Positions 84-19,183 are shown, counted from the stretch's first letter. The stretch: 64,000 nt of DNA from Pseudomonadota bacterium (GCA_027485695.1 JAIXQO010000003.1:866932-930931); one strand, 5' to 3'. A program made the numbers and translations. The notes: generated from the sequence alone by a model not told the origin.

Positions 84-1211
84 GTGAAACGAGTTCTCGC
101 TGGAGGACCCTTCTACAGATTGACTATAGTATCGCCTATGAAATTAGGGGCCAACCCGAAACGATCGGCTGTCATTTTTTCGCCGGACATTGCGTCTCTG
201 GATCGTGCAGACTTACAGCAGCTTTTCTTGGATTGGATATCTAAATTCGACTTTTCACGAATTTCTGGGCGTTCTGAGGAGATCGCGCTTCGTAGTTTTT
301 ACAATCAGGCGAATTCAGTTGCTCCGGAGCTCGGACGGCCCGAACGCCTCGATTTTTTCGGAGTGCTTGATCGCTCCGCATTTCTCAACTTTCCGATCAC
401 CATGGGAATGGGAGGCGATCAGGGGTATGAGGCACTCGCCGTTCTCTCGCTGAAGTGTGGAAATCGAGAGCCTTTTGCCGGTCCGTTCGGCTACCTGCGC
501 GATCTTCGTATTCAAGGTGGCTCACGTTGTTTCGCGCGTTGGAGAAGAATCTATCGATCACTTCTGGAGCACGAAGAATTATTTAGCGAGCGGTTCGGTT
601 TTCGCGGTTTCTATACCTTGGTTGCTAGTAACAATGAACGGTGGCGCGACTCGTTACCGCTCCTCGAGTCCTATGGAATTCACTACAATGAATTCGGACG
701 GCTAAACGAATACGTCGTTCCACCCTATGAAGGTGATCGGACGTTCGCGGATTGTTCCATCGAATCGTTAGAGAGCGAGCCGGAGGGTGGAGCGCATGTT
801 TTTACGGCGTATGACCTACATGTCGAGAATTTTTCGTCATTCGAATCGTACCTTCAGTTCCAGCGCGAGTGCAGCTGGGTGCGCGCGCAAACTCCGACGG
901 GAGATTGGGTGGCGGCATGGATTTGGAATAGTTCGAATACCAAGCTCTATCCCATTGATGGTGGTAAACCACGTCATTTTTTGATCGATCTGATTTCGAA
1001 CACTTCGGCAGAGTACGGCGCCTATTTGCTCTCCGCCATTCACCGTGCCAATGGCGACTACGCACTGAGCCTACCGGGATTTCCAGGGGTAGAGCAGTGG
1101 CTCAGATTCGAGGCTTCGGTCCAAGAAAAACTCTACCACCTCTACCGAGTTGAAAAGAGTTCTCGCTCGTATGCGATTGAGCAGTTAACCGGGTTATCGG
1201 CATTTATTTAG
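84..1211 (+). CDS. hypothetical protein (375 aa), first gene of putative tailoring locus
   Basis: Long ORF with GTG start. No motif I recognise. Only 18 nt separate its stop from the next gene, which is co-directional. Confidence 0.5.
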   Translation: MKRVLAGGPFYRLTIVSPMKLGANPKRSAVIFSPDIASLDRADLQQLFLDWISKFDFSRISGRSEEIALRSFYNQANSVAPELGRPERLDFFGVLDRSAFLNFPITMGMGGDQGYEALAVLSLKCGNREPFAGPFGYLRDLRIQGGSRCFARWRRIYRSLLEHEELFSERFGFRGFYTLVASNNERWRDSLPLLESYGIHYNEFGRLNEYVVPPYEGDRTFADCSIESLESEPEGGAHVFTAYDLHVENFSSFESYLQFQRECSWVRAQTPTGDWVAAWIWNSSNTKLYPIDGGKPRHFLIDLISNTSAEYGAYLLSAIHRANGDYALSLPGFPGVEQWLRFEASVQEKLYHLYRVEKSSRSYAIEQLTGLSAFI

Positions 1212-1228
1212 GGAAACGAGGAACGCAT

Positions 1229-1978
1229 ATGATTCAAACACAAGCATTCATCCAAGAGCTCCATGGGCTGATGTGGCAAGAGTGGAGCGAAGTCATTAAG
1301 ACCAACCCCCTCATGCGCGCAGCGATGAATGGTACGGGGGACAAGCGACTTTTTGCGATCTACTTGAGCCAGGTCTATCATTTCACGCGCGAGAATCCGG
1401 TGAATCAGGCACTGGTCGCACAGAACCTTCAGAGTCATCGCTGGAAAATGGATACCGGGACTAAGGTTCGATACATGAAATTCTGTTTCCATCATGCCGA
1501 AGAAGAAGCAGGTCACGAGTACATGGCGCTCCATGATCTCAAGGCATTTGGTCTGGATGTGGAAGAAGCCACCATACCGCCGGCGCTCCCGTCGACGAGT
1601 GCGTTCATTGCGCTGGTCAGCGAGATCGCAACACAGTGGCATCCCGCCGCGCGTCTCGGTTACTCCTACTGGGCTGAGAGTTGCTATGAGATATTTCGTC
1701 CGATTGCTGGAGATCTTCAGAGTTCTTTGGGGATCAAGCCACAGGCGATGACGTTTCTTCATCAACATGGGCAGATCGATGAAAAACATGCCGAAGAAGT
1801 GAACGTCGTCTTGGGTTATGTCGTGACGAACGAAGAGGCGGCCGCATCGGTCAAACGCGCGCTCATTGAAACAATCCGATCGACGGGCGAGATTCTCGCG
1901 CAAATCCATCAGGCCTATGTTGAACTCAAGGCGGATCCTGAAAAAAGCCCCTATTCTCTGATGGCGCGCCTCGGATGA
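1229..1978 (+). CDS. heme-oxygenase-like diiron (HDO / Haem_oxygenas_2 / CADD-TenA-PqqC-fold) family protein
   Basis: Helical protein. Paired carboxylate/His motifs typical of HDO diiron sites: 'FHHAEEEAGHEYMALHDL' (ExxH) and 'LHQHGQIDEKHAEE'. Its stop overlaps the next start (ATGA) at 1975-1978. Confidence 0.55.
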   Translation: MIQTQAFIQELHGLMWQEWSEVIKTNPLMRAAMNGTGDKRLFAIYLSQVYHFTRENPVNQALVAQNLQSHRWKMDTGTKVRYMKFCFHHAEEEAGHEYMALHDLKAFGLDVEEATIPPALPSTSAFIALVSEIATQWHPAARLGYSYWAESCYEIFRPIAGDLQSSLGIKPQAMTFLHQHGQIDEKHAEEVNVVLGYVVTNEEAAASVKRALIETIRSTGEILAQIHQAYVELKADPEKSPYSLMARLG

Positions 1979-3108
1979 ATGAGCTGAACTCGATCGATGT
2001 GCTCTTCTCGCACCGCGAATACGGTGCGGCTGAGCTTGCCGTGCGATTCCGTGACCGCGTGGATGGCCCCCGGCTTAAATCCTCGCTCGGGCAAGTTTCC
2101 GAGCTCTATCCGATATTATCCGCCCGACTTGAATACGGTGAACGGACTCGTTTCGTTCCGTCAGGTGAAATCAGTTTTGATGAAGTGGACTTGTCGGCGA
2201 GCGACATGTCCCTTGAGCAGAGTACAGAGCTTGCGAAATGGGTACCCCGGGTGAAATCCGGGAGTGAGCAACTCTTGTCTATTCGGTTGCTTCGAACTCT
2301 AAACGCAGATTTCCTGCTCATCAGTTTCGCGCACGTACTGGGAGACGGGCATTCGTTGTTCCAGTGGCTCAGTACTTGGGGGCAAGCGTACGGCGGTAAG
2401 TTCCTCACTCCCTGGGAAACGGACCGAAGCCTGATCTCAACCGCCCGTTTGGCGGCATCCGCGAGCGCCGAGCCTATGGCGCTTAAAGACTTGGGTTTCA
2501 CCGGGCGAGGTGAATACCGCTCATTTGATAACTCGGAACTCGAGCGGAGTCCGCTCAGACTGATACCGGATTCTGAAATCAAAGAGATTCGTAGTCGAGA
2601 TGCCGAAGTTTCGCGGTTTGATGCGATTTCCGCCTGGATTCTTCGGGAAAAAGCTCGCGAAATCCCGCAAGCTCAAATCGTTTTTATCTGCCCGATGAAT
2701 CTGAGGTTCGTGCTTCCTGAAATTCCGATCTACTATTTTGGAAACGCAGTCAAAGCTGAACTCGCCTGGTTCGATCGCGAACGACTGCTGACGGACGACC
2801 TTGCGGACATTGCGCGAGAGATCCGCGATCTCAAGCGCCGAATGACTCCGGAGAGAGTCGCGCAGGGACTAAAAACGCTGGACGCTCTTCGCGAGACAGA
2901 AGGCGACGATGCTCTCCGCGAGCTTCGGGTGACGGAAGAAGCATCGGTGCTCATTACTGATCTGACCAAGATCCCTCAAACGATTCCTTTTGGTGAGACC
3001 GTCGTCAACGGTGTCGTCATGCTCAGTAATTATCCCCGAGCCGTGGCTCTCGTACCTAGTCGTGATGGTTTGGCATACCAGGTCTGCCGATTCGTCGGGA
3101 AAACTTGA
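1975..3108 (+). CDS. standalone condensation-domain / CoA-dependent acyltransferase superfamily protein (HxxxDG motif)
   Basis: Motif 'FAHVLGDGHS' matches the HxxxDG catalytic signature of NRPS C-domains, PapA5, WS/DGAT and BAHD enzymes. Size 377 aa. Translationally coupled to the HDO gene. Confidence 0.5.
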   Translation: MNELNSIDVLFSHREYGAAELAVRFRDRVDGPRLKSSLGQVSELYPILSARLEYGERTRFVPSGEISFDEVDLSASDMSLEQSTELAKWVPRVKSGSEQLLSIRLLRTLNADFLLISFAHVLGDGHSLFQWLSTWGQAYGGKFLTPWETDRSLISTARLAASASAEPMALKDLGFTGRGEYRSFDNSELERSPLRLIPDSEIKEIRSRDAEVSRFDAISAWILREKAREIPQAQIVFICPMNLRFVLPEIPIYYFGNAVKAELAWFDRERLLTDDLADIAREIRDLKRRMTPERVAQGLKTLDALRETEGDDALRELRVTEEASVLITDLTKIPQTIPFGETVVNGVVMLSNYPRAVALVPSRDGLAYQVCRFVGKT

Positions 3109-4372
3109 GTCGAATAGGATTTCGCGACTGAAGCGTCGTATAGGGATAGAGGTCTGTTTCCGAAATCTCCGGACTCGATAGCGTGATATCGTAAGACTCT
3201 AAAATTTCGGACAAGATCCATTTCATTTCACGAAGCGCGAAACCGCGACCGACGCAAGAGCGCGCGCCCTTACCGAATGGAATGAATGCTTCTTCGCTCC
3301 AGCGTTTTGAGTCTTGGGGCCTGAGCGGGTCAAACCTCAGCGCGTCCGGGAAAAACCGCTCCATTCGGTGCAAGAGAAACGGGCTCACGGCCACGGAATC
3401 TCCCTTTCGAATGGAAGTCTCGCCCCAGGTATCGTCGGTGAATGCCGATCGACCGAAATTGGCGATCGCAGGATAGAGCCGTAGAGTCTCGAGAATCCAG
3501 TCCTCGAGAAAAGGGGTACTGGTCCGAGCCTGGGCTTGAAATTCCGGGCGACGCGCAAATTCATAGAGCGCGAACTGAAGCACGTTCGCCGACGTATCGT
3601 GACCTGCAATCAGGAGGTTGCGAAGATCGCCTTGGAGGCCCGCGTCTCCGATTCCGGCCTCGCGGTAGCTGGCTCGTAGTGGGTGGTTTTCGGGCATTGC
3701 CTGTACAATCGATTGGATGAGTTCGACGAAGGTACCGGTGAGGTGATTAAACGCAAACGAATAGTCGCCAAATAGTCGGATCGTGAGCGGGCTTGGGAAT
3801 TTTTGCCAAAGGACGAACCGCCGAAAAATCCCGTCCAAGGCCCGGCGAAGACGATCCGTTTTGGCGCGATCATCGAGTCTGAGTAAGTAGCGTGCGAACA
3901 GCTCCAGGGCGATTCGACTCATGAGCGGGCCGATCGGTATACTGTGGGGTTCTGTCAGGACTTCACTCAGGGTGTCTCGAACATGAGCACGGAGTTCCGA
4001 CTCTCGTGAATCAATTTGGGTCAGCCCGAAGTAACGGCCGAGGAGTTTTTGACTCTGTTTCCATTCGGTGCCTTCTTTGGTCACGATGCCGTGACCCAAG
4101 ATTTTCCGGAGTCGTTCGTAGCCTGGGCTGCGTTTACCGTACTGGGACGAGTGGGTCACTAAAACGCGCTCGATCAGTTCCGGGCGCAACGGAATCCAAT
4201 GGCTGCGTTCCGGAGTGATTCTAAAAACAATCACGTCAGCACGGCTTGCGAGAATCTTCGAATAGAGCTCGGGTCGTCCCAAGCCGAGTTGAATCAAATG
4301 CCCGGTCAGGAGACGACCGCTGATCGGATCCTGTGGCCATTCTTGAATCTGCAGAGGTGTTTGCTCGCTCAT
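3056..4372 (-). CDS. cytochrome P450 monooxygenase
   Basis: I-helix 'AGHDTS', K-helix 'ETLRLYP' (ExxR), and heme-binding loop 'FGKGARSCVGRGFA' (FxxGxRxCxG). Length 438 aa. Confidence 0.9.
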   Translation of the reverse strand: MSEQTPLQIQEWPQDPISGRLLTGHLIQLGLGRPELYSKILASRADVIVFRITPERSHWIPLRPELIERVLVTHSSQYGKRSPGYERLRKILGHGIVTKEGTEWKQSQKLLGRYFGLTQIDSRESELRAHVRDTLSEVLTEPHSIPIGPLMSRIALELFARYLLRLDDRAKTDRLRRALDGIFRRFVLWQKFPSPLTIRLFGDYSFAFNHLTGTFVELIQSIVQAMPENHPLRASYREAGIGDAGLQGDLRNLLIAGHDTSANVLQFALYEFARRPEFQAQARTSTPFLEDWILETLRLYPAIANFGRSAFTDDTWGETSIRKGDSVAVSPFLLHRMERFFPDALRFDPLRPQDSKRWSEEAFIPFGKGARSCVGRGFALREMKWILSEILESYDITLSSPEISETDLYPYTTLQSRNPIRLKFSRRIGRPGMPNHHD

Positions 4373-4375
4373 AGG

Positions 4376-5896
4376 TTAGCGATCTCTGGTCAGTGGAATG
4401 GGAATGGAGTTCAGCCAGTCGAGCACGTAGAGTTTCCTGTGTTCTTGGGCCAGTGCCTCTGAATAGCATGCTACCATGAGCTCCGTACTCTGGTCCTGCG
4501 ATTCGTCGTTGGCATTGTAGCTACCGATGACGGTCACCACACCATCGACGGAATAGCTCTTAGAATGTTGGTAGCCGTCGTACGCCCACCAATGGAAATT
4601 GTCCCGTTCCATGAGCGCGCGGATGGCTTGTCGAGCGGGCTCAATTTCGGATAGCGGTGACGGTGTCAGATGCTCGGCCGCCCAAATCACGGTTGTTTCA
4701 AACGCATTTCGAGGTTTTCTCGGCATCGAATGATCATCGGTAGGGCGACGAGAGTGGTTGGTTTGCATATCCACGCGGAGGTCAGGCCGCGCGTTCGCGA
4801 TTCGGATGATGAGTCGCAGGATTTCGCGACCGACGGATGATTTTTCCGGATGATCAAAATCGACGTGGATATTGTTGTAGAAGAGATGCTTTTTCGCGCG
4901 GCTGATCAGTTCGAAGATGAAATGGAGGATGCGGCGGTCCTGTTTGCTCGCGTCTTTTTCAATCACTCGGCAAGGGGTGGTTCCCGCCTTCGTGATGGGA
5001 GCAGGTAGTGGTAATGTCTCGCCAGTCGCGGTTTTCCATCGACGAGTGAACACTTTTGCTAACTCGCGGACTGCCGGGCCTTGAATGGACAGGTGAGAGT
5101 CTCTGAGTCCGTCATTGTTCGATCGCGCAGACACTTGAGCGCCGATCAAATTATCTCCGCTCACCCAGGCGGATTTTCCGTCAATGATACCCAATTTCTG
5201 ATGGTGGATCTTGAGTGTTCCCGGTGAATAGCGGACGACCGAGATGCGCGAACGAGTGAGTCTCTCTAGGCAACCCGGATCCGTTTGAGAAAAAATCGAA
5301 TCGAGTAGAACTCTCACCGAGACGCCCGAACGTGATTTTTGTTCAAGGAGTTGAATGAGAGGCTCAGTACCGGCGTCGCAATTGAGGAGAAATGTAGAAA
5401 TCCAAATCGATTGTCGGGCCGATTGAATGAGACCGAGTCGATAACGGGAAATGTCATCGACACCGAGCACATGAACTTGGTTTCCGATCACCGGCTGTGA
5501 TCGGGTCAAAACGTTCAGATGAGATGAATAAAACCAGGTTTGGAGCTCCTCGCGAGGTGCATTTTCCAGTTCTGCCGTAAACGCTTGAAAACTGTTTTTA
5601 GACCAACTCGTTTGTCTAGTCGTTGCGATGAGAGAGCCTTGAATCGACTGGGAACTCGGGTACTGATAGCGTGCAGTAATGGCATCATAGGGCCAGGCCG
5701 AATAAGCGTTCTCCCATTTGGTCAGGGATTTTTCGCCGTGACTTTTGGCCCAGTTCTCGACTTGGGTGGAGGGGGCAATGTCGAGCGCCTGGGTTTCGTA
5801 GGCCCAGCTGAGTGAGACGAATGCGATGAGAATCACATAGGTCCACCTACGTATTGTGTTTGCGCGGGAGGGGGTGCCTCGACCGGAAAAATTCAT
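4376..5896 (-). CDS. phospholipase D / cardiolipin synthase family protein (two HKD motifs) with N-terminal signal/TM
   Basis: Two HxKxxxxD motifs: 'HHQKLGIIDGKSAWVSGDN' and 'HSKSYSVDGVVTVIGSYNAND'. N-terminal hydrophobic segment 'WTYVILIAFVSLSWAY'. Confidence 0.8.
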   Translation of the reverse strand: MNFSGRGTPSRANTIRRWTYVILIAFVSLSWAYETQALDIAPSTQVENWAKSHGEKSLTKWENAYSAWPYDAITARYQYPSSQSIQGSLIATTRQTSWSKNSFQAFTAELENAPREELQTWFYSSHLNVLTRSQPVIGNQVHVLGVDDISRYRLGLIQSARQSIWISTFLLNCDAGTEPLIQLLEQKSRSGVSVRVLLDSIFSQTDPGCLERLTRSRISVVRYSPGTLKIHHQKLGIIDGKSAWVSGDNLIGAQVSARSNNDGLRDSHLSIQGPAVRELAKVFTRRWKTATGETLPLPAPITKAGTTPCRVIEKDASKQDRRILHFIFELISRAKKHLFYNNIHVDFDHPEKSSVGREILRLIIRIANARPDLRVDMQTNHSRRPTDDHSMPRKPRNAFETTVIWAAEHLTPSPLSEIEPARQAIRALMERDNFHWWAYDGYQHSKSYSVDGVVTVIGSYNANDESQDQSTELMVACYSEALAQEHRKLYVLDWLNSIPIPLTRDR

Positions 5897-6029
5897 CGGC
5901 CGCAGGTATCATGCGGTGCATTATAAATCTAGAAAACGTCGAAACGGGCTTCTGGTCTACCTAGCGGACCGAATCGGCGTGTCGGGTGAATTTGGGCGGT
6001 GAAAGTTTGACGTTAAAAATGAGCCTATC

Positions 6030-6144
6030 ACTTGAAATGATTCATGATTTTGTCTTGTTCTTTTTTTAATCTTCCGTCACTCTTTTAAAAAGAGAAGCGA
6101 ATTCAACGGTTTATCGAAACCAACGCTTAAGGAGGATCGAAGCC
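6030..6144 (+). promoter_or_regulatory. AT-rich divergent promoter region and strong RBS (AAGGAGG) for ihfA
   Basis: AT-rich stretch 'tcatgattttgtcttgttctttttttaatcttccgtcactcttttaaaaagag'. 'aaggagg' lies 9 nt upstream of the GTG start at 6145. Confidence 0.35.
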
Positions 6145-6498
6145 GTGGCCATGACGAAAGCAGACATCGTAGAAGCCCTTTATGAAAAAGTGGGTTTCTC
6201 GAAAAAAGAAGCGTCGGATCTCGTGGAATTGGTCTTTGATACCTTGAAAACGACGCTCGCCGAGAGCGAGAAGATCAAGATCTCGGGTTTCGGCAATTTC
6301 GTCGTTCGCGAAAAACGCTCCCGCATCGGCCGCAATCCGCAAACCGGCCAAAGCATTGAGATTTCCGCGCGTAAGGTTCTGACCTTTCGCCCGAGCCAAG
6401 TGCTGCGTGCCGAAGTGAATGCCGCCCTCGAAGGCAAGACGATCGATCGTTCCACCATCATCGAGGACGATGAGGATGATGAGGATGGCGAAGATTAA
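6145..6498 (+). CDS. ihfA: integration host factor alpha-like (HU/IHF family) DNA-binding protein with acidic C-terminal tail
   Basis: 'KISGFGNFVVREKRSRIGRNPQTGQSIEISARKVLTFRPSQVL' resembles E. coli IHF-alpha ('GFGNF...RPGRNPKTGE...TFRPGQKL') more than HU. It ends with 'EDDEDDEDGED'. Confidence 0.75.
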   Translation: MAMTKADIVEALYEKVGFSKKEASDLVELVFDTLKTTLAESEKIKISGFGNFVVREKRSRIGRNPQTGQSIEISARKVLTFRPSQVLRAEVNAALEGKTIDRSTIIEDDEDDEDGED

Positions 6499-7003
6499 GA
6501 GCCGCCCCGTCGCTCCATCATCGCTTCCCATTCGATTAACCGATTCCGTTTGGGAATCTCCGGATTCAGCCGCCCCGGTCGGATCCTGGGCTGCAGATCA
6601 ACTCGTTCGCGAATTCGACCTCGAAGCCGCCCTGGATGCACTTCCTCAGAAGCTTTTTTTCAAAATCGGAGAGGTCGCTGATTTGCTCGCGGTCAAGACG
6701 TCCGTGCTTCGCTATTGGGAAAAAGAGTTCACCGGCTTAAAACCGCAAAAGTCCGAGTCCGGCCAGCGTGTCTATCGCAAGAAGGACGTCGAGACGCTGA
6801 TTTTTATTAAACATCTTTTGTATACCGAGCGGTTTTCGCTCGAAGGCGCTCGCAAGCATCTGAAGAATTTCAAGAACCGAGTTCAAGCGCGTTCCCAGAC
6901 CCCGGTTGCTGCAGAAGAAACGCCGGCAAAACGCGAAGTTCCCACCCAGGTGCGTGAGCTGCTGGATCGGCGGCTTGGGCATTTTTTTAAGTGGGTATTT
7001 TAA
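6470..7003 (+). CDS. MerR-family transcriptional regulator (start uncertain; overlaps ihfA 3' end)
   Basis: MerR HTH 'KLFFKIGEVADLLAVKTSVLRYWEKEFTGLKPQKSESGQRVYRKKDVETLIFIKHLL'. In-frame ATGs lie only at 6419, 6470, 6476, 6479 and 6485. There is no ATG/GTG/TTG between 6485 and the HTH, so the protein carries an N-terminal extension of at least 50 aa. Confidence 0.65.
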   Translation: MRMMRMAKIKSRPVAPSSLPIRLTDSVWESPDSAAPVGSWAADQLVREFDLEAALDALPQKLFFKIGEVADLLAVKTSVLRYWEKEFTGLKPQKSESGQRVYRKKDVETLIFIKHLLYTERFSLEGARKHLKNFKNRVQARSQTPVAAEETPAKREVPTQVRELLDRRLGHFFKWVF

Positions 7004-7962
7004 CGACGAGCGCGCGTGAGATTGAGGATTTTTTTCGCCAAGTTCTCACCCAAGACCTGCTCCATTTGAACAATCAGTCCCGGCGACGTGAAGTTATAGT
7101 CCGTGATCAGTCCGTCGATCAAGTCGATGGCGGCCCAGCGGATTTTCGATTGCTTCAGCCGTTTGGAGATCGCCGGTAGGGCTCGTTTTTCTTTTGCCGT
7201 CAGTGGTGCTGCTCGAACACTGCCTCCCGAATCCATGTTGATGATGGACTCTCCAGATTTTGGCAGTTTTTGGGCAAATGCGAGGAGCTTGCCGTCGATC
7301 CACCAGGTGCGCTTCTCTCCGTCCAGGATCGCAGGGCGATAGGCTTGCAGAGCTTGAGGCAGGTCCATGGTGGAGTGGAGGTCTGCTTGCGAGGCAAGTG
7401 CGTGATGGAGATCTCGAGATGAGCGGAGGATAGCGACCCCTTTGCTCTGGGCGGTATTCAGTGGTTTTAGAACCACCGTGCCGTGTTGTTTTAGAAATGA
7501 TTCCATCTCGGCTCGGTCAACCGTAATTAAGGTCGCGGGAGTGAGCTTGCGATCAAACAGGCACTCGAGTTTCTCGCTGCGAGAAAAGAGTGATTCGAGC
7601 GGATTCACGAGCTCGGTCGTGCGCTCGAGTTCGGCAAGCCGCATGAGTTGTAGCGGGAGCAAATAGGAGAGATCAACCGGTGGATCCGGGCGGTAGAAAG
7701 CCTGGGAAAATCCCGAGAGAACACTCCGTTTCGGTGCAGAAAAAACAAAACTCCCCGCATCGAGTCTGTCGGGGGCGTTCTTAAGTTCGCGGATTTCTGC
7801 CGTGAGTCTCCCTTGGTTCCAGGTGATCGTTTTGAAATCGCACCAGTGAACGGATTCGCCCTGAATACGAGCCTCTTGCATGACCCGCAGGGAGGTATCG
7901 CGAGGGTGATCGAGGGTATTCCAGGGGTCCGTGATGAAGAGGCGTTTTAGGCGTTTTCGCAT
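7000..7962 (-). CDS. gshB: glutathione synthetase (ATP-grasp)
   Basis: Collinear with E. coli GshB: 'TPATLITVDRAEMESFLKQHGTVVLKPL' vs 'TPETLVTRNKAQLKAFWEKHSDIILKPL'; 'LQAYRPAILDGEKRTWWIDGKLL' vs '[23 protein letters not shown]'; 'DYNFTSPG' vs 'EINVTSPT'. Confidence 0.85.
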   Translation of the reverse strand: MRKRLKRLFITDPWNTLDHPRDTSLRVMQEARIQGESVHWCDFKTITWNQGRLTAEIRELKNAPDRLDAGSFVFSAPKRSVLSGFSQAFYRPDPPVDLSYLLPLQLMRLAELERTTELVNPLESLFSRSEKLECLFDRKLTPATLITVDRAEMESFLKQHGTVVLKPLNTAQSKGVAILRSSRDLHHALASQADLHSTMDLPQALQAYRPAILDGEKRTWWIDGKLLAFAQKLPKSGESIINMDSGGSVRAAPLTAKEKRALPAISKRLKQSKIRWAAIDLIDGLITDYNFTSPGLIVQMEQVLGENLAKKILNLTRARR

Positions 7963-8780
7963 TTCTTTGCGATCTCCTCGACAAAAGGTTCCAAGGACGA
8001 TCGAAGCTCGAGCGGCAAGCGCTCTAACTTTTTCCTCAGGTCTTGAAGCTGTTTTTTTGCAAGCTGTTCGACGTCGGTGCGCGAAGCGATACTGGCGATG
8101 TGAGCGAAGTCGAGGCTCTTCTCGTTCCAGTCGTCCTCAAGGTCATCGGCCAGTTGAAAGAGAATACCAATCTGGCGGCCGATCGCACCGAGTTCGCGCG
8201 TGAAATCGGCGGTTTTCTCGGATGCAACCGAGGTGAGCATGAGGCAGAGCCCGAAGAGTGCGCCGGTCTTGCGTGAAAAGATCGATTCCAGAGCCGCAAG
8301 CGAAGTGGGCGCATTCAATTCAAACTCGGCCACTTGCCCGCCGATCAACTCTCCGCCATCGATGGATTCCAGAACGATCGAGAGAAGGCGCATGCGGACC
8401 GTGTCGCTGACCGGCAGCTTAAAAAGTTCCTGGAGCGCAAGCGGAGTGAGCGCATCGCCCGCGAGGAGCGCAGTCGCCTCGCCAAAGAGTTTGTGATTCG
8501 TCGGTTTACCGCGCCTGAAATCGTCGTCGTCCATCGCAGGCAGATCGTCATGGATCAGTGTGTAGGTGTGAATGAATTCAACCAGCGCCGCAAGCGGGAA
8601 CAGTTCTCGGTCACTCAGGCCCAAGGCCAGACCGGAGGCGAAAATCAGCCGGGGCCGAATGCGTTTGCCGCCCGAGAAAACGCTGTAACGAACGGAGTTC
8701 CAGAGCGGAGCCGGAAACCGGTCTTTTTGAATCTGGAGGCGGTCTTCGAGATAGGCTTCGAAAGCGGAGGTTCGATCCAT
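7947..8780 (-). CDS. ispA: polyprenyl (farnesyl/geranylgeranyl) diphosphate synthase
   Basis: First Asp-rich motif 'LIHDDLPAMDDDDFRRGKPTNH' and second 'FQLADDLEDDW'. Its start overlaps the gspN stop (TAATG). Confidence 0.85.
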   Translation of the reverse strand: MDRTSAFEAYLEDRLQIQKDRFPAPLWNSVRYSVFSGGKRIRPRLIFASGLALGLSDRELFPLAALVEFIHTYTLIHDDLPAMDDDDFRRGKPTNHKLFGEATALLAGDALTPLALQELFKLPVSDTVRMRLLSIVLESIDGGELIGGQVAEFELNAPTSLAALESIFSRKTGALFGLCLMLTSVASEKTADFTRELGAIGRQIGILFQLADDLEDDWNEKSLDFAHIASIASRTDVEQLAKKQLQDLRKKLERLPLELRSSLEPFVEEIAKKCENA

Positions 8781-9703
8781 TAGGTATCTGGTTGTGGCAT
8801 GGATGCGTTCAAAGGGCCAATGAGTTTAAACTTGTAGCTGCCGTCTTTTTGCTTCATTTGCCCCAGAAGCGCATCGAGGAGCGAAAACGACTGCTGAAGC
8901 TTGGGAGAGAGCGAGAGCTCCACGCGGAGATTCGCATCGCTACTGTCGATGTATTGGGCGAGTTTCACGTCGCCTTTCAAGCTCACGTAGAGATCGTCAC
9001 TGGCGGCAGCGCGACCCAGTCGGAATGTCTTGATCTTGACGTTCGGTTGCGCGATTTCGATATCGATCGATCCCGTTGCCAAAGCGATTTTCGGAATTTG
9101 AAATCCTTGAATCTTGGTTTCATCAAGCGAGATGCGGCTCAGCTCCAGTCCGATCTGTCCGTTTTTCTCTTCGATTTGGATCGTACCTTTGACCTCGGCG
9201 GTGCCTTGAAGATCCGGGGATAAGAACGGCAGTACGCCGATTCGCCCGAGGTTCAATGACTCGATCTTGAGATCCGCTTCGGGTTTCTGGTTCTTGATGT
9301 AGACGGAGCCATAGATGCGGCCTTCGCCTTCTTCGAGAACAAGGTCTCCGCCGAGTTTGCCTTGAACGGCGGCGATGATCGATGGATGAAGCTCGAGTTT
9401 AGAAAAACTGAGGGCTTTTTGGGTGGCGGTCTTCAGGACTTTGACTCCGCTGAGTTCGTAATAAAGCCCGAAACCCAGCTTGATTTTGCCTTCGTCAGCC
9501 GACAGCGCATAGCCCATCGGAGCGATTTCTTGGTTGACCATGCCCAGAAGGGTAGCCGTGATCTTGGTTTGAGGAATGCGGAGTAGCGTAAAGAAAAGCA
9601 GGCAAAAAAGCGCGAAAAGCCCCCAGGAAACCGTCTTGAGGATGCGTTTAGATTTGGGTTCCTGAATTTCTTCGATCGAGATCGTATCTTCCATCAGATC
9701 CAT
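8780..9703 (-). CDS. gspN: type II secretion system protein N-like (membrane-anchored periplasmic protein)
   Basis: N-terminal TM 'VSWGLFALFCLLFFTLL'. It is the last gene of the gsp operon, directly after gspM, in the canonical position. The call rests on position and topology only. Confidence 0.5.
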   Translation of the reverse strand: MDLMEDTISIEEIQEPKSKRILKTVSWGLFALFCLLFFTLLRIPQTKITATLLGMVNQEIAPMGYALSADEGKIKLGFGLYYELSGVKVLKTATQKALSFSKLELHPSIIAAVQGKLGGDLVLEEGEGRIYGSVYIKNQKPEADLKIESLNLGRIGVLPFLSPDLQGTAEVKGTIQIEEKNGQIGLELSRISLDETKIQGFQIPKIALATGSIDIEIAQPNVKIKTFRLGRAAASDDLYVSLKGDVKLAQYIDSSDANLRVELSLSPKLQQSFSLLDALLGQMKQKDGSYKFKLIGPLNASMPQPDT

Positions 9704-9705
9704 TC

Positions 9706-10338
9706 CTACTTTTTCGGAGCTTGATAGGTGAGGAGCGAAAATTTGAGGTTCACATATCCGCTCTCATCCGGCTCGGTATCGACTTGGAGTGTCTTGACCT
9801 TGGCTGGACGTCCGCCGTTCTCGAGTTGAAAGACGAGTTTAACGAGTTGGCGTACGTTTACTTTTTTCACGTCGACATCGATCAGCTGCTCGCTGGGGGC
9901 TCCGTTTGATCCCGACTGAGCGGCTTGTTCGTTGACTTTGAGGTTCTCGGCCGCAATTCCCATTTGGGAGGCTTGCGTTTCAATGTACGCCGTCCACGGC
10001 TCGTCAGAGGCGCCCATCCCAGAGAGCGGATTGTTGTCGCGTAATCGACGAAGCTCATCTTGGGAGCGGTTGAGGTGTTTGATCAGCGCGAGTTTTTCAT
10101 CGAGTTCCGCTTGTTTGTCCGAGACCGAGCTATACATCAGGAGAGTGATGAGAACGAGGGCGGCAAACGATCCGAACACGCCCACCATCGAAGCGACTTG
10201 ACGATGTTTGGGGTCCAGTTCGTCCCATTTGGCGCGGATCTGTTGATACCAGACCTGTTCCTGGATCTTCTCTTGAAGCTGCTCGATCAGTTGAGAAAGC
10301 CTGGAGTTACTTGCCATCTTTCTTCCCTCCGGTTGCAC
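9706..10338 (-). CDS. gspM: type II secretion system protein M
   Basis: Bitopic topology: cytoplasmic N-terminus, TM 'VFGSFAALVLITLLMYS', and a periplasmic domain of about 130 aa. It follows gspL. The start may instead be the internal 'MASNSRL' methionine. Confidence 0.6.
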   Translation of the reverse strand: MQPEGRKMASNSRLSQLIEQLQEKIQEQVWYQQIRAKWDELDPKHRQVASMVGVFGSFAALVLITLLMYSSVSDKQAELDEKLALIKHLNRSQDELRRLRDNNPLSGMGASDEPWTAYIETQASQMGIAAENLKVNEQAAQSGSNGAPSEQLIDVDVKKVNVRQLVKLVFQLENGGRPAKVKTLQVDTEPDESGYVNLKFSLLTYQAPKK

Positions 10339-11956
10339 CGCTTGCAGACATGCGAAACACGAGTTTGTATTTCTTCAGTCCGTCGGCGCCGGTCACGTCC
10401 GTCATCGAATCCGTTTTGAATTGAGGGAACCGCGAGACGACGGCGTTTTTCAACCGTTCTCCTACCTGAGGAGACGCGACCCAGAACTCCATCTCAGAAG
10501 GGACTTGGCTGGTTGCAGTCGCCGAGCTTTGGGAGAATTTCATCAGATCAGTCACCACGTCGCGAGAAACGGCGGCGGAGAGATCCTTGAGAAAATCAAA
10601 AGGCGAAGAAGGATCCGGCTCCAGTAGCTTGAGGAGGCTTCGTTCCTTGTTGAGCTCGGAGTCGACGGCGCGTTTCAAACTCGAGGTGTTCGCCATGTAA
10701 TTTTTGAGAGTACCAGGGGCGATACCTGAGAAAAAATTTCGCGTCGCTTTTTCCAAGCCCGTGCTCGAGTCTTTGATCTGCGAATCGATCATCGAGGACT
10801 GGGTGAAAAGAATGATGATCGCGAGCACCATCGCGACTGAAAGCGTCTTCATCGGCTTGGCGACGAGCGATAGGTTGAGGCCGGGGCCTGAAGAGGTTCG
10901 CGCGAATTCTTTTTTGCGAAGGTTCACCAGAACGCTGCGTTCGGGGCTCGTCGCAGCAAGTGCGAGTCCAAGGGCGAGCGGGAAACGCACATCGGTTTGT
11001 TCAGAATAGGTGACCCGGCTCTCACCCAAGGAGCTGAGCGGTCTCAAGATGTGGGTCGAGATTTTCATTTCCTCCGCGAAAGTCGCGGAGAGGCCTGGCA
11101 TCAGTGCAGTGGGTCCAGCCAGGTAAATGGATCCGACACGTTGGGCGGTGACGGTTTTCGAACTCAGGTCCGCTTGCTTGACGTCGCGGATGAGTGGAGC
11201 GAGGCACTCGTAGACCGATGCCGCGAAATCGCGCTGCTCTTCGGAGACTTGCTCCATTTGAGTGATCGGAAGGACGAATCCGCTTTCGATTTTGGCTTTT
11301 TCGGCGGCTTCGATCGTTAGGTTGTAACGTTTCGAGAGTGCAATCGACATCTCGCGCGATCCCCAGGCGATCTCGCGACACAGGACAGGATTGCCCAAGT
11401 GCTGAACATAGATGGTCGTGCGTTCATGTCCAAGATTGACGAGCATGATCGGGCGATCCGTCGCCGTCAGTCCCGAAGAAATTTTTCTGAACAGAGCACG
11501 GTAGGCGGAAGCCTCCGTCGTGAGTACGTCCGGATCGACGCCAGATTCCCCGAGAAGCGCCAAATACTCGGCGACGTTCGTCTTCAAGGTCGCGGCCACG
11601 TGGATGGCCGTTTCATGGCCGACGGCGCCCAGGTTCACCCAGTCGTAAATCAAATCGTCTTCTTCGAATGGGAGGTCGTCCTCGATCTCGAAACGAACAC
11701 TGGATTGGATGGCTCTTTTGTCGCGGGTCGGAAGTTTGAGGTTCCGGAACGTGACCCGGTTGCTCTTGACGTTGGTGATGACACGGTCCGGTTTCTTTTT
11801 GAGCGAGGCAATCAGTTCGGCGGCCGCGACGGCGGGAGCGGTACCCGTCGGAACTTCGAGCTCATAGTACTCTTGTACTTCTGAGCGGCCAAAAGCCGAG
11901 TTCAGTTCAATCGCTTTGATACTGGTACTTCCAATGTCCAGTCCAAGAATTCTCAT
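10307..11956 (-). CDS. gspL: type II secretion system protein L (actin-like cytoplasmic domain + TM + periplasmic domain)
   Basis: N-terminus 'MRILGLDIGSTSIKAIEL' is an actin/ASKHA fold as in GspL/PilM. A mid-protein TM 'LSVAMVLAIIILF' is present. Position is between gspK and gspM. Confidence 0.75.
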   Translation of the reverse strand: MRILGLDIGSTSIKAIELNSAFGRSEVQEYYELEVPTGTAPAVAAAELIASLKKKPDRVITNVKSNRVTFRNLKLPTRDKRAIQSSVRFEIEDDLPFEEDDLIYDWVNLGAVGHETAIHVAATLKTNVAEYLALLGESGVDPDVLTTEASAYRALFRKISSGLTATDRPIMLVNLGHERTTIYVQHLGNPVLCREIAWGSREMSIALSKRYNLTIEAAEKAKIESGFVLPITQMEQVSEEQRDFAASVYECLAPLIRDVKQADLSSKTVTAQRVGSIYLAGPTALMPGLSATFAEEMKISTHILRPLSSLGESRVTYSEQTDVRFPLALGLALAATSPERSVLVNLRKKEFARTSSGPGLNLSLVAKPMKTLSVAMVLAIIILFTQSSMIDSQIKDSSTGLEKATRNFFSGIAPGTLKNYMANTSSLKRAVDSELNKERSLLKLLEPDPSSPFDFLKDLSAAVSRDVVTDLMKFSQSSATATSQVPSEMEFWVASPQVGERLKNAVVSRFPQFKTDSMTDVTGADGLKKYKLVFRMSASGATGGKKDGK

Positions 11957-11997
11957 GCGCGTGCACCCTCTGGCATTCTCGTGGTGTCAAAATCAGT

Positions 11998-12111
11998 ACT
12001 GAGAGATGAGAAATGGGTTCGTGAGTCCGCACCAGCGTGAAGCGTTCGCCTCGAAGAGGCGAGGGGCGGTAGGACAGGAGTCCGACGAACGAAAACATTT
12101 CTCATCTCTCA
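11998..12111 (-). ncRNA. intergenic structured element (copy 1): perfect 17-bp inverted repeat 'CTGAGAGATGAGAAATG' flanking a conserved core, in the gspL-gspK gap
   Basis: 11998-12014 is the exact reverse complement of 12095-12111. The core contains 'AGCGTGAAGCGTTCGCCTCGAAGAGGCGA' with an internal hairpin cgcctc-gaa-gaggcg. Confidence 0.45.
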
Positions 12112-13536
12112 GGATTCTCTCATAAAGGTGATTTTTAGGCCAATATTCGGCGTCGTAGTTGAGTTTGGATTTGCCGCCGCCGGGTCTTGTCCACCCGGAT
12201 TTTGGGGCTGTGCACCACTGCCGTCGGCCCCGTTTCCGCCAGCACCATTGGGGTTTGTCGTGTTGCCTTGGCGTCGGCCGGAATTGCTATCGGGTTTTAC
12301 CAGGGAGACCCAGGCCTCGATCACGCGCATGGCTTTATTGACTTCGGCGCTGACGGTGATCTTGAACGTCTCCTCATCGACGATGAAGTAAATGCCTTGA
12401 GAAGAGAATTTCTGTTTGAGTTCGGTCTCGGAGCGGCCAACGCTTCCAAACGCCTTGGCAATGTAGGTCCAGAATGCTTGAGCGTCCTTGAAGCGGTTAT
12501 CGGCTTCTTCGGAATCACGGAATTTGAAAAACTCCTCGACCTCCTCGTCGGTAACGCCTGGGAAAAGTGCACGTAGAAGAGGGGCTTCGAGCGTATTGAC
12601 GTTGATCCCGGTCGTCGGATTCGTCGTAAACAATGGTGCCAATAGCTGGTAGAGACCGTCATCAATCGGATGGATCATGCGAAGCTCGGAGACCGAGTAA
12701 AAAGGCGCACGTTTGTAAGGGATGACCTGACGACCGCTTCCGTTGCGTGGCTGGAACGAGGGGTCGATCCAACCAAAAATATTATCCATGAGCTCCTCAA
12801 TACTGAGGTCTCGGTACTCCTGGGCGAAATCGGTATCGTCTTTGAACTTCTGATTGATGGTGTTCGTGATGAACGCCGTGAGTTGCTCCCGGGCAGCTTT
12901 GGGGTCAGCCGAATTGGTCGGACTTGGATTCGGATTCGGGCGTCCGCGTGAACCGCCGCCCCCAAATCCACCGCCGCCGTCTTCGTCTTCGCGACCGCCG
13001 GCTCCTGCACTAGCACTCGGCGAAGGGGCTGGAGCTGCATAGGCGGGGAGCGCGGAGTTGATGTTCATGCGATTCGAATCGGACTCGATCGTCGCGGTGA
13101 ACCGACCCTGAAGACCGCTCTCGGTTTCGAACTTGGCAATCTCGTCCTTGGTGATGACGGGGATGCCGGGAACGTCTTTGGGGATCGGATAGGAGAACGG
13201 GAATTTCCAAACCTGTTCCAGCACCGTTGCTGGAATTGACGGCAGATTGGAGCCCTTGCCGCCCATGCCCCTGAGATTTTGATAGGCCTTGAGTCTGAGG
13301 AGGGAAATCTTAAGGCCGGTGAGCGCAAGGTAGTGAGCCTTGACCTGATCGGTGGCATCGAATGCAAGGCGCGCGTTCACTTGCGCGACGTATGTGAATT
13401 CGCTTACGAGCACCGAGAGAATCGTCACCGCCGAAAGCACCATGAATAGTGCGATCCCGGTTTCGTTCTTTTTCGGTTTGGACCGGAGGAGCGGAAAGCC
13501 CGTCCGGGCCCGCTCAATAAGTTTTTTCCAGTCCAT
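12109..13536 (-). CDS. gspK: type II secretion system minor pseudopilin K (with Gly/Pro-rich low-complexity insert)
   Basis: N-terminus 'GIALFMVLSAVTILSVLVSEFTYVAQVNARLA' is GspK-like. The ORF track extends to 13617, which would overlap gspJ by 104 nt, so I chose the internal start 'MDWKK' at 13536. Low-complexity segment 'GGREDEDGGGGFGGGGSRGRPNPNPSPTNS'. Confidence 0.7.
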   Translation of the reverse strand: MDWKKLIERARTGFPLLRSKPKKNETGIALFMVLSAVTILSVLVSEFTYVAQVNARLAFDATDQVKAHYLALTGLKISLLRLKAYQNLRGMGGKGSNLPSIPATVLEQVWKFPFSYPIPKDVPGIPVITKDEIAKFETESGLQGRFTATIESDSNRMNINSALPAYAAPAPSPSASAGAGGREDEDGGGGFGGGGSRGRPNPNPSPTNSADPKAAREQLTAFITNTINQKFKDDTDFAQEYRDLSIEELMDNIFGWIDPSFQPRNGSGRQVIPYKRAPFYSVSELRMIHPIDDGLYQLLAPLFTTNPTTGINVNTLEAPLLRALFPGVTDEEVEEFFKFRDSEEADNRFKDAQAFWTYIAKAFGSVGRSETELKQKFSSQGIYFIVDEETFKITVSAEVNKAMRVIEAWVSLVKPDSNSGRRQGNTTNPNGAGGNGADGSGAQPQNPGGQDPAAANPNSTTTPNIGLKITFMRES

Positions 13537-14377
13537 AAAAAGGCGTTCCCACATGAAGCGTGTATAGGCCGTCGAATCGAAGGCGTTGTCCTCCGATGAC
13601 TTCGATTTTGATTTCAACGAGGTCCGGATATTTTCCGTTCAGGTCGTCGTCGGTTTTTCCGTTATCCCATTTGTTCTGCCAGGATTTTTTATCGCGTCGA
13701 AAGTAGCGGAAAGTCATGGTCTTCACGCCAGGCAAGATATAATAGGCTTTTTTCCAGGTGTCTTTTTTCTCTTCGTCATCGAAGACGTTGGTGTCGACGA
13801 TCTTAACGAGCGTACGCGCGCCTTCTAAGCGGTAGTCTTCGTCTTTTTCTTCGCGAAGTTCATAGGTGACCTTGACGAATTCGCTCTCGGGACGGTCTTT
13901 GTAGAGTCGTTGATGCGAGGAAGTGATGAAACTCATCTTCTGCTCTTCGCCAACGAATCGAGAAAGCCTGACGCCGGTCTTAACGGTCGATGGGAGCCAG
14001 AAATCAGTGAGTTTTCCCAGTTCGGCGGCAGTCTCGAGTTCGTCCTGCGTGGGTGGTTGCGCTCCGGGCTGTTGTCCGAATCCACCCGGTTGACCTGGAA
14101 AACCCGGACGTTGCGGAGTTTTCGGCTTGGGGGGGAGGTAAGCGACCGGCGAAAAAAGCATGTTCAAGTCGCGCTCGACCAGTCCCATCGAGAGCCGAAT
14201 GCCGTTATAGAAATCGCCTTCGCGAATCAGCACGTCGCGCATACGAAACGTCTGGGTCATTGACTGATAGATCGCCAGACTGATGAAGATCAAAATCGTA
14301 ATCGAGATCAAAACTTCGAGAAGGGTGAAACCGGCTGTTCGTTCTCGTAGGCTTTGTTTTTTGCGCGCTGACACCAT
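13514..14377 (-). CDS. gspJ: type II secretion system minor pseudopilin J
   Basis: Prepilin N-terminus 'RERTAG|FTLLEVLISITILIFISLAIY'. I chose the internal start 'MVSARKK' (16-aa leader). The ORF track start at 14476 would give a 49-aa leader and an ATGA overlap with gspI. Confidence 0.7.
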   Translation of the reverse strand: MVSARKKQSLRERTAGFTLLEVLISITILIFISLAIYQSMTQTFRMRDVLIREGDFYNGIRLSMGLVERDLNMLFSPVAYLPPKPKTPQRPGFPGQPGGFGQQPGAQPPTQDELETAAELGKLTDFWLPSTVKTGVRLSRFVGEEQKMSFITSSHQRLYKDRPESEFVKVTYELREEKDEDYRLEGARTLVKIVDTNVFDDEEKKDTWKKAYYILPGVKTMTFRYFRRDKKSWQNKWDNGKTDDDLNGKYPDLVEIKIEVIGGQRLRFDGLYTLHVGTPFYGLEKTY

Positions 14378-14472
14378 GATGAAACTTTTTTCGACTTCCA
14401 AAAAAGCGTGATGCGTTCTCGCCGCAGGCGAGATTTTTGGGAGGATAGGAGTCCGGCAAGAAAAAAGTTTCA

Positions 14473-15018
14473 TCATGGTGTCAGACTAAATGGAGTTTCA
14501 AAATCCACCCAGTACATCGCGACCACGTAAGACTGTTCTCCTGCGCCTCGTTTCCATTTGACGGTGATCGTGATCTCTCGAATCGATTTCGAGAGGTAAT
14601 TGAAAATGACTTTGCCCATTTGCTCTTGCACGTTCGCATTCGACGAGCCGTCAGCGGGAGGTGCTTGATCTTCGGCCTCGGGATTCTGAAAAAGAGCCGA
14701 TATATTCGGGAACTCGATCTCCTTGACCTTACGTTCCCAGGAATAGTCTTGATAGGGGTCTTCGAACTGTCCCGATAGCTCCGTGCGAATCTCGCTGAAC
14801 GGTTTCCCGAGGATCTCGGCCTCAGTCATGGTCATGGCGTTTCGAGCGAGCATTCCGACGACGTTCATCTGTTTGGATTTCGCCGAAGTATTCAGGCTCG
14901 ATCGCTGGACCATGAGGATCGAGGCAAACGCGACAAGCATGATGGCCATGGCGATCATGACTTCAAGAAGCGTGAATCCTGAGCGGTTGTCGCGGAGGCG
15001 ACTCGGGAGGTGCCTCAT
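14473..15018 (-). CDS. gspI: type II secretion system minor pseudopilin I
   Basis: Prepilin motif 'NRSG|FTLLEVMIAMAIMLVAF'. Length 181 aa. 4-nt overlaps on both sides. Confidence 0.8.
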   Translation of the reverse strand: MRHLPSRLRDNRSGFTLLEVMIAMAIMLVAFASILMVQRSSLNTSAKSKQMNVVGMLARNAMTMTEAEILGKPFSEIRTELSGQFEDPYQDYSWERKVKEIEFPNISALFQNPEAEDQAPPADGSSNANVQEQMGKVIFNYLSKSIREITITVKWKRGAGEQSYVVAMYWVDFETPFSLTP

Positions 15019-15662: not shown

Positions 15663-15666
15663 TTCG

Positions 15667-16128: not shown

Positions 16129-16169
16129 AAACGTGTGGGTGGTTTCCTTTCTTAATACAGAGACGGGGA

Positions 16170-17405: not shown

Positions 17406-17422
17406 GGTGGTTCAGTTTCTCC

Positions 17423-19138: not shown

Positions 19139-19183
19139 GGCTTAAGTTCTCGTCTCCGATTTCCTCTTACCCATTGCGTGGGG

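Follow-up and report, generated by a model that had tools for sequence, protein, structure and literature searches.

A conserved gene module pairing a heme-oxygenase-like oxidase with a BAHD-like acyltransferase in a Pseudomonadota bacterium

Do five adjacent genes with motifs for specialised chemistry work together, and if so what might they make? We ask this of a 64,000-nucleotide window from a Pseudomonadota bacterium (GCA_027485695.1, JAIXQO010000003.1:866932-930931). Its first 6 kb encode an open reading frame that we call ORF1, a heme-oxygenase-like dimetal oxidase (HDO), an acyltransferase (AT), a cytochrome P450 and a phospholipase D (PLD). A sequence-only reading had proposed that these genes form a tailoring locus. 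We are confident that the module is real and that its members are functionally linked. We describe it as a vertically conserved module with a core of HDO, a BAHD-like AT, a P450 and an exported PLD, to which ORF1 has been added in this genome. As to its product, we tentatively favour, stopping a little short of calling it probable, an amphiphilic, acylated and oxidised amino- or phospho-lipid that the module makes or remodels.

Gene order and conservation of the locus

The five adjacent open reading frames that the sequence-only reading had placed at the start of the window are all present (Table 1), and they form two converging units, ORF1-HDO-AT and PLD-P450. The first three genes had been described as co-directional and translationally coupled. 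The coupling holds for HDO and AT, whose stop and start share 4 nt (ATGA), and not for ORF1 and HDO, which are merely close, with a 17-nt gap that hosts a GAGGA Shine-Dalgarno-like site. The P450 and PLD genes do converge on this unit from the minus strand: the 3′ ends of AT and P450 overlap by 53 nt, and 3 nt separate the PLD stop from the P450 start. The GC content of the locus (0.50-0.55) equals that of the flanks, which gives no hint that it was imported recently. By its position, the promoter of PLD-P450 presumably lies in the divergent intergenic region before PLD. A consensus scan of this region found no sigma-70-like site, a promoter and terminator scan of the window did no better than on shuffled sequence, and an Rfam search of the 64 kb found no RNA family reaching threshold.

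This arrangement is conserved elsewhere. The closest homologue of HDO (P0005, 54% identical) is found on metagenome contigs L001-L003 in the order PLD (541 aa), HDO, AT-like (357 aa), with a convergent P450. The second closest (P0006, 53%) is on a 4.3-kb contig, L088, again as PLD-HDO-AT with a convergent P450. BLASTP matches between L001 and the window extend over the full length of AT (28% identity, E 4e-44), P450 (33%, E 4e-66) and PLD (31%, E 2e-78). Over L001 and L088 together the identities, again full length, are 27-28% for AT, 31-33% for P450 and 30-31% for PLD. These two contigs represent different organisms, with ATs that are 40% identical and HDOs that are 73% identical to each other. 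In both, PLD is the first gene of a PLD-HDO-AT operon, and the overlapping convergent ends of AT and P450 are kept in the window, L001 and L088 alike. The sequence-only reading had said that genes never found together in relatives would point to a chance juxtaposition; four of the five are syntenic in L001-L003 and L088. The presence of full-length orthologues of all four in two other lineages makes the locus more than a chance grouping.

Beyond these contigs, species-representative genomes were scanned with the HDO alignment as query. This gave 246 matching stretches, the best of them 42% identical, and 80 loci were retained. An AT homologue directly follows HDO in three of these loci, an Archangium metagenome-assembled genome (MAG; L006), a 'Deltaproteobacteria' MAG (L007) and a Bacteriovorax MAG (L013). 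In L007, and in L006 by BLAST, a P450 and a protein that combines ketosynthase (KS), acyl carrier protein (ACP), aminotransferase and condensation parts are transcribed divergently from HDO-AT. The co-directional genes of L013 are CysD, CysNC, an FAD enzyme, a 333-aa gene, HDO, AT (PF02458), a fatty-acid hydroxylase and a sulfotransferase. A glycosyltransferase gene that is transcribed the other way separates the FAD enzyme from the 333-aa gene. CysD and CysNC are genes for the synthesis of 3′-phosphoadenosine-5′-phosphosulfate. In a simple neighbour-joining tree of 85 HDOs, built without support values, the six AT-linked HDOs fall in one clade, the window, L001 and L088 together with L006, L007 and L013. 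Other HDO clades track other partners, namely a hexapeptide acyltransferase with a ribonucleotide reductase (RNR)-like diiron protein, DUF3419, or an aminotransferase-condensation protein with a GNAT. It should be kept in mind that our calling of open reading frames in the high-GC loci is crude.

Could the five genes nonetheless be neighbours by accident, with no joint function? One observation speaks for this, which is that ORF1 is not kept in the closest copies of the module. Yet four orthologues occur together in three lineages despite a rearranged gene order, the overlapping AT/P450 ends are conserved, genes are coupled by 4 nt and 3 nt, and the HDO-AT pairing is monophyletic in the tree. 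We therefore regard chance adjacency as close to refuted.

The copies of the module differ in their surroundings. After the P450 of L001 (11013-13122, minus strand) come an Asp/Asn beta-hydroxylase-type gene (PF05118), a TylF-type O-methyltransferase and a 204-aa unknown, and the same hydroxylase/methyltransferase pair adjoins HDO in L045. The window is without these hydroxylase and methyltransferase genes, so the module copies probably yield differently decorated products.

The predicted enzymes

HDO matches Haem_oxygenas_2 (PF14518) with 71 bits against a Pfam cut-off of 28.9, and in the family profile alignment its ExxH, E and HxxxD(E)xxH motifs coincide with their counterparts in MboA and BesC. 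This bears out the heme-oxygenase-like diiron signature recognised by the sequence-only reading. In an alignment of 21 members H51, E92/E93, H96, E150, H180, D184 and H187 are invariant, and all six metal-ligand positions (three His and three carboxylates) are kept in the window protein. HDO is 36-39% identical to PDB 3DDE (phmmer E 8.8e-45), 36% being the figure from the Foldseek structural alignment. An AlphaFold2 (AF2) model with a pLDDT of 95.6 shows an all-helical heme-oxygenase-like fold, with TM-scores of 0.83-0.89 to 3DDE and 0.71 to the Fe/Mn protein CADD, to which HDO is 17% identical. We predict from sequence and model that HDO is a two-metal, O2-activating oxidase of the 3DDE subfamily. 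The 3DDE protein itself is Sden_3740 of Shewanella denitrificans, a structural-genomics entry without an assigned function whose structure was released in 2008 and which is described as a 'TENA/THI-4 protein' with a heme-oxygenase-like fold; it belongs to the same subfamily as HDO and has the same invariant ligand positions. Two features set the window HDO and its two closest relatives apart from it, an 8-residue insertion (alignment columns 70-77) and the pairing with a BAHD-like AT in place of the LuxI/FeeM-like neighbour that is usual for the 3DDE subfamily.

The sequence-only reading had also asked whether this protein could instead be a TenA or PqqC. It is neither: there is no PF03070 or PqqC match at E up to 1, and the 21 members share no invariant Cys. 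TenA and PqqC are weaker fold neighbours only of the HDO model, and the 'PqqC' and 'TenA' names on some HDO homologues originate from source databases. The next matches of the HDO family profile are MboA, the mangotoxin acetylenase (2e-5), the p-aminobenzoate (pABA) synthases and CADD (5e-4 to 0.07) and BesC (7e-3). These and UndA have the heme-oxygenase-like helical fold in common with HDO. That said, characterised HDOs are only remotely similar to it, UndA being detected by fold comparison only, and their substrates and partner genes differ. For example, MboA acts with ATP-grasp ligases and a dedicated redox partner (PMC13185094), and these partners are absent at the window locus.

Is HDO then a housekeeping enzyme, e.g. 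a CADD-like, self-sacrificing pABA synthase, among functionally unrelated neighbours? CADD is its best-characterised structural neighbour (TM 0.71), pABA synthases are among the weak profile matches, and L005 has a thymidylate synthase and a dihydrofolate reductase about 7 kb off. The likeness to CADD amounts, however, to just 17% identity and profile E-values of 5e-4 to 0.07, the start and stop of HDO are coupled to different transferases clade by clade, and four-gene synteny is conserved at 27-54% identity. We consider a housekeeping role very improbable.

The second plus-strand enzyme, AT, had been read from its HxxxDG motif as a condensation-like protein. This did not hold up. Condensation (PF00668) reaches 14 bits against a cut-off of 30.6, over residues 21-128 only, and the motif reads A-H-V-L-G-D-G, without the first His of HHxxxDG, so we rejected a condensation domain of the non-ribosomal peptide synthetase (NRPS) type. 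The BAHD 'Transferase' model (PF02458) matches with 36.2 bits (cut-off 22.7). It scores 39.5 bits on the L013 orthologue and, with E-values up to 1 allowed, picks up four of the five family members. H120, D124 and F255-G256-N257-A258 do not vary among the five aligned members, so that AT has an HxxxD catalytic motif and a YFGN-type central motif in common with BAHD enzymes. With its 377 aa, AT falls about 60 residues short of the length of the Pfam model. The BAHD acyltransferases have been described as a plant family (PMC12807277). A word-indexed homologue search with AT returned the query itself only, and its relatives came to light through the neighbourhoods of HDO homologues. Metagenome scans with the AT alignment and with an alignment of close HDOs gave no matches; P0005 itself comes from JGI metagenomes, so this blank is a limit of the pattern or the collection and not an absence. 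As for the superfamily, both the BAHD-like family of AT and the condensation domains lie within the HxxxD acyl-CoA transferases, which also include PapA5 and chloramphenicol acetyltransferase.

ORF1 is the least conserved member of the locus, and is absent from L001 and L088, the closest module copies. In a word-indexed search it found only itself among 5.8e9 clustered proteins. With phmmer there are three matches at E about 1e-4 among 1.8e9 representatives, which brings the detectable family to about five members, none of which matches any Pfam model at E up to 5. The best remote match is P0084, which directly precedes the HDO start in L091 and is 66% identical to the 333-aa gene of L013. The order is thus ORF1-like, HDO, AT in L013 and ORF1-like, HDO in L091, and this placement directly before HDO in Bacteriovorax-type loci corroborates the weak homology. 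Two further members, P0085 and P0086, each adjoin a Rieske oxygenase gene; genes for a GH3 amido synthetase and for a fatty-acid desaturase are also part of the P0085 locus.

What is ORF1? It had been put forward as a gene without a recognisable motif that could form the scaffold of the product. Our structure model replaces this suggestion and answers the question in part. The AF2 model, from a four-sequence alignment, has a mean pLDDT of 49.8, with most of residues 20-180 at about 60-87 and in the strand/helix order of a GNAT. ORF1 is thus probably, on this model, a GNAT-fold acyltransferase in its N-terminal half. The acyl-CoA motif Q/RxxGxG/A is not conserved in the family, as the R142-IQGGS stretch of ORF1 is not kept in its relatives. 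We also considered ORF1 as a diverged version of F1, a LuxI/FeeM-like family introduced below, and rejected this: the F1 HMM does not match it, and hhalign against F1, F32, F19, F2 and F36 gives probabilities of at most 6%.

The two minus-strand genes agree with the sequence-only reading of a P450 with a complete signature set and a protein with two HKD motifs. The P450 matches PF00067 with 151.6 bits (cut-off 22.8) and has, beside the FGKGARSCVG loop, an ExxR motif (ETLRL) and an I-helix motif (AGHDTS). Its best PDB sequence matches include CYP102L1, CYP51, CYP4B1 and P450 BM3, the top one being an unnamed putative P450, and by these matches it resembles lipid-oxidising E-class P450s. The PLD matches PLDc_2 (PF13091) in two stretches, with 81.7 bits against a cut-off of 27, and both of its HxKxxxxD motifs are conserved across the window, L001 and L088. 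Like the ClsA/ClsB family it has two HxKxxxxD...GxxN motifs and two PLDc_2 domains, and cardiolipin synthases are its best NCBIfam matches. Nevertheless we rejected a cardiolipin-synthase equivalog, with TIGR04265 at 52 bits against a cut-off of 290 and ClsB at 36.6 against 281. The protein also differs from ClsA/ClsB in its signal peptide and, in the relatives L001 and L088, in being operonic with HDO and the acyltransferase. Over all the locus proteins, NCBIfam gave sub-threshold cardiolipin-synthase and generic P450 matches only.

The predicted signal peptide implies that PLD acts outside the cytoplasm. This is an addition to the sequence-only reading. Signal-peptide PLDs are found in three locus types, including a third PLD in a different HDO locus, L015.

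The wider subfamily and the possible product

To which chemistry do the relatives of HDO point? Families of neighbouring genes were obtained by crude calling of open reading frames and clustering over the HDO loci, and annotated with Pfam, NCBIfam and PDB. The commonest neighbour (F1) occurs in at least 53 of 85 loci. It is about 224 aa long, and its profile matches the N-acyl-homoserine lactone synthase TofI (E 3e-5) and then GNATs; on this profile evidence it is a LuxI/FeeM-like N-acyltransferase. Further neighbours are BtaA-like DUF3419, hexapeptide acyltransferases, fatty-acid desaturases, glycosyl- and sulfotransferases, an alpha-oxoamine synthase, an AMP-ligase and a recurrent P450 family. 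The common theme of these neighbourhoods, as predicted from the gene families, is amino-functionalised lipids and their tailoring. The subfamily is present in the Pseudomonas fluorescens group, in Corallococcus and in many Bdellovibrionota.

Several architectures recur within it. In the P. fluorescens group (L047, L050, L057-L060, L066, L071-L077, L080 and L081, at about 9300-15500 in each) there is a conserved and apparently undescribed locus of LuxI/FeeM-like, HDO, BtaA-like DUF3419, alpha-oxoamine synthase (PRK07505), PaaK-like AMP-ligase and 363-aa unknown genes. These strains are cultured and tractable, so they are probably the easiest entry to the chemistry of the subfamily. A second recurrent architecture is found in Halobacteriovorax/Bacteriovoracaceae MAGs (L016, L017, L020-L022, L061, L063 and L089), with HDO, a hexapeptide acyltransferase, an RNR-small-subunit-like/rubrerythrin-like diiron protein, a LuxI/FeeM-like gene and a PD40 beta-propeller; two different diiron enzymes in one small operon are unusual. 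In the myxobacterial-type MAG L007 (5768-9958, minus strand), and also in L006, the protein that adjoins HDO-AT unites KS, ACP, class-III aminotransferase and condensation domains in one chain. In Chitinophagales (F59: L023, L030, L043 and L048) an aminotransferase-condensation fusion of about 780 aa and a 359-aa GNAT lie directly upstream of HDO. KS-aminotransferase starter modules offer an analogy, by which these neighbours suggest beta-amino fatty-acyl substrates.

The locus also resembles known aminolipid systems in its logic, which is that of an N-acyltransferase, an O-acyltransferase and hydroxylases (PMC11631085). In the clusters for ornithine lipids (OlsB/OlsA, with OlsE-type hydroxylases) and in the FeeM/NAS clusters for long-chain N-acyl amino acids a GNAT-superfamily N-acyltransferase lies beside a second acyltransferase and hydroxylases, and the wider HDO subfamily likewise adjoins LuxI/FeeM-like, fatty-acid hydroxylase and Asp/Asn hydroxylase-type genes. 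The likeness has its limits. No window protein matches the Pfam models of OlsB (PF13444), OlsA/PlsC (PF01553) or FeeM, the second acyltransferase of the window is BAHD-like, and the known aminolipid pathways are without HDO, P450 and PLD.

On the lipid reading, the steps may run as follows. ORF1 would acylate an amine, with acyl-CoA or acyl-ACP as the donor, and HDO would carry out an O2-dependent oxidation of that lipid or amino substrate. For HDO we favour C-H chemistry (desaturation, hydroxylation or C-C cleavage), since its nearest characterised relatives are MboA, CADD and BesC, with N-oxygenation as the alternative. AT, with His120 of its HxxxD motif as general base, would perform an acyl-CoA-dependent acylation of a hydroxyl or amine on the substrate or product of HDO. 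The P450 would hydroxylate an aliphatic chain and draw on a redox partner whose gene lies outside the locus. At the outer side of the inner membrane, PLD could then catalyse an energy-neutral phosphodiester hydrolysis or transphosphatidylation, by which the product would be linked to a phosphatidyl group or released from one. A membrane lipid is a substrate that cytoplasmic and exported enzymes alike could reach; this is an argument and not evidence. The guess of the sequence-only reading, N-acyl amino acid or modified-lipid chemistry, thus fits the neighbours of the wider subfamily; 'tailoring locus', its name for the five genes, is an inference.

What other products should be considered? One is a soluble, amino-acid-derived compound. 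HDO would act on a short peptide or a free amino acid, to which the BAHD-like and GNAT enzymes would add short acyl groups, with the P450 tailoring the product and the exported PLD maturing, activating or detoxifying it. Most characterised HDOs do act on free amino acids or short peptides, and the nearest characterised profile matches of HDO (MboA, CADD-type pABA synthases and BesC) are consistent with this, as are the TylF-type methyltransferase and Asp/Asn hydroxylase-type gene of L001 and the lack of an acyl carrier protein or fatty-acyl ligase at the window locus. Yet the subfamily neighbours are mostly lipid enzymes (desaturases, the fatty-acid hydroxylase, the KS-ACP-aminotransferase-condensation protein and the LuxI/FeeM-like acyl-ACP transferases). 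Moreover there is no ATP-grasp, NRPS adenylation domain or peptide ligase, and HKD PLDs work on phosphodiesters, which are unusual in small amino-acid products. We judge a soluble product unlikely, and the strongest competitor to a lipid.

Another is scavenging and remodelling, in which the exported PLD cuts environmental or prey phospholipids, and the lipids or head groups set free are oxidised and re-acylated in the cytoplasm by HDO, P450 and the acyltransferases. The PLD signal peptides in the window, L001 and L015 fit this picture, many HDO loci are from the predatory groups Bdellovibrionota and Myxococcota, and the window has a complete type II secretion operon at a distance of 3-16 kb. 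But the module is unaccompanied by transporter, lipase, beta-oxidation or regulator genes, the acyltransferases and GNAT enzymes are anabolic, and in L006, L007 and L013, where HDO co-evolves with AT as its partner, there is no PLD. Scavenging is in our view distinctly improbable.

A lipid product remains the reading that we prefer, and a number of points weigh against it. Some concern the locus itself: an acyl carrier protein, an acyl-activating enzyme and a P450 redox partner are all lacking there, only 83 nt of sequence lie to the left of ORF1, so the locus may extend beyond the window, and the full four-gene module is seen in three lineages only. Others concern the proteins. The PF02458 match of AT covers profile positions 148-407 of 434, leaving the N-terminal third unmatched, and AT has no clear DFGWG motif, the region reading TDLTKIP...PFGE with D329, P334 and F339 invariant in the five members. 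The GNAT assignment of ORF1 comes from a low-confidence model, without Pfam support or a conserved acyl-CoA motif, and the absence of ORF1 from L001 and L088 means that the N-acylation step is not universal. PLD is exported and the other four proteins are predicted to be without signal peptides, so that one shared substrate is not guaranteed. The lipid theme stems largely from other HDO clades. Finally, the activities and substrates of all five proteins, like the product and the HDO reaction, are predictions from sequence, and 3DDE offers no assigned function to lean on.

All the locus proteins except ORF1 belong to known superfamilies, and we see here an uncharacterised specialised-metabolism locus and not a new category. 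A search of a literature library found no description of the 3DDE subfamily of HDOs, of its LuxI/FeeM-like or BAHD-like pairing, or of this gene combination. A more far-reaching proposal is that the HDO/BAHD-like pair is an undescribed route to a new class of bacterial lipid, e.g. a phosphatidyl-linked or doubly acylated oxidised amino-lipid, that 3DDE-type HDOs perform a reaction new to HDOs on a lipid-bound substrate, and that ORF1 founds a new GNAT-like family. We offer this as speculation that is more doubtful than the lipid reading itself.

Surrounding sequence and significance

Some further features of the window are collected in Table 1. Among them is a type II secretion/pilus-like run; type II systems are frequent exporters of phospholipases. 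Upstream of PLD, on the other side of the intergenic region, the stretch 6145-7003 holds two genes judged by their sequence: an IHF/HU-like gene (117 aa) that ends in the acidic tail EDDEDDEDGED, and after it a reading frame with a MerR-like helix-turn-helix. The listed start of the second overlaps the first by 80 nt, the true start probably being later. Two long minus-strand reading frames stand out elsewhere, one of 1156 aa (30782-34252) with a faint Thi4/FAD-type N-terminal match only, and one of 654 aa (48017-49981) with no Pfam match at E up to 1e-5. Clustering of about 15 billion proteins at 90% identity leaves UvrB, GspE, UvrC and four of the five locus proteins as singletons, the fifth not being found by exact look-up, and the species-representative set either lacks this genome or masks it. 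The lineage looks poorly sampled.

Table 1. Positions of the locus genes, their motifs and other features in the window
Feature	Position (nt)	Strand	Remarks
ORF1	84-1211	+	375 aa from GTG 84; recorded start (P0001, NCBI) is ATG 138, 357 aa
ORF1 family motif	489-509	+	GYLRDLR
HDO (heme-oxygenase-like dimetal oxidase)	1229-1978	+	249 aa; 3DDE/Sden_3740 subfamily
HDO ligand motif ExxxH	1499-1525	+	EEEAGHEYM
HDO ligand motif E	1661-1678	+	YSYWAE
HDO ligand motif HxxxDxxH	1766-1795	+	HGQIDEKHAE
AT (BAHD-like HxxxD acyltransferase)	1975-3108	+	377 aa
AT motif H120xxxD124	2332-2349	+	HVLGDG
AT motif YFGNA	2731-2748	+	BAHD 'YFGN' central region
Cytochrome P450, E-class	3056-4372	-	438 aa
P450 Cys-ligand loop	3248-3277	-	FGKGARSCVG
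PLD (HKD phospholipase D/cardiolipin-synthase family)	4376-5896	-	506 aa
PLD HxKxxxxD motifs	5150-5206 and 4514-4567	-	both HxKxxxxD...GxxN
PLD N-terminal signal peptide or membrane anchor	5786-5845	-	predicted; cleavable-looking
Divergent intergenic region, PLD start to IHF/HU-like gene	5897-6144		presumed promoter region of PLD-P450 transcript
Glutathione-synthetase-like ATP-grasp gene	7000-7962		predicted from sequence
Polyprenyl synthase	7947-8780		predicted from sequence
Type II secretion/pilus-like run	8780-22030	-	co-directional genes, 3 kb from signal-peptide PLD
Further open reading frames	8780-11956	-	pilus/secretion assembly-like by eye
GspK-like gene	12109-13617	-	
GspF	16170-17405	-	
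GspE ATPase	17423-19138	-	
GspD-like secretin	19352-22030	-	

HDOs are a fast-growing source of unusual oxidative chemistry, and to our knowledge UndA is the only characterised one among those that act on lipid or lipo-amino substrates. The neighbourhoods of the 3DDE-type subfamily point to just such substrates for HDO chemistry. If this is true, solving one locus would annotate the whole subfamily (246 stretches), and the window offers a compact five-gene version of less than 6 kb that could be expressed as one piece. Its parts are atypical, with a bacterial BAHD-like acyltransferase, of a kind that the plant literature treats as plant-specific, and an orphan GNAT-like family. The product would give a function to many 'PqqC/TenA' mis-annotations, and would add a new class of lipid or surfactant, possibly tied to predatory or membrane-active lifestyles.

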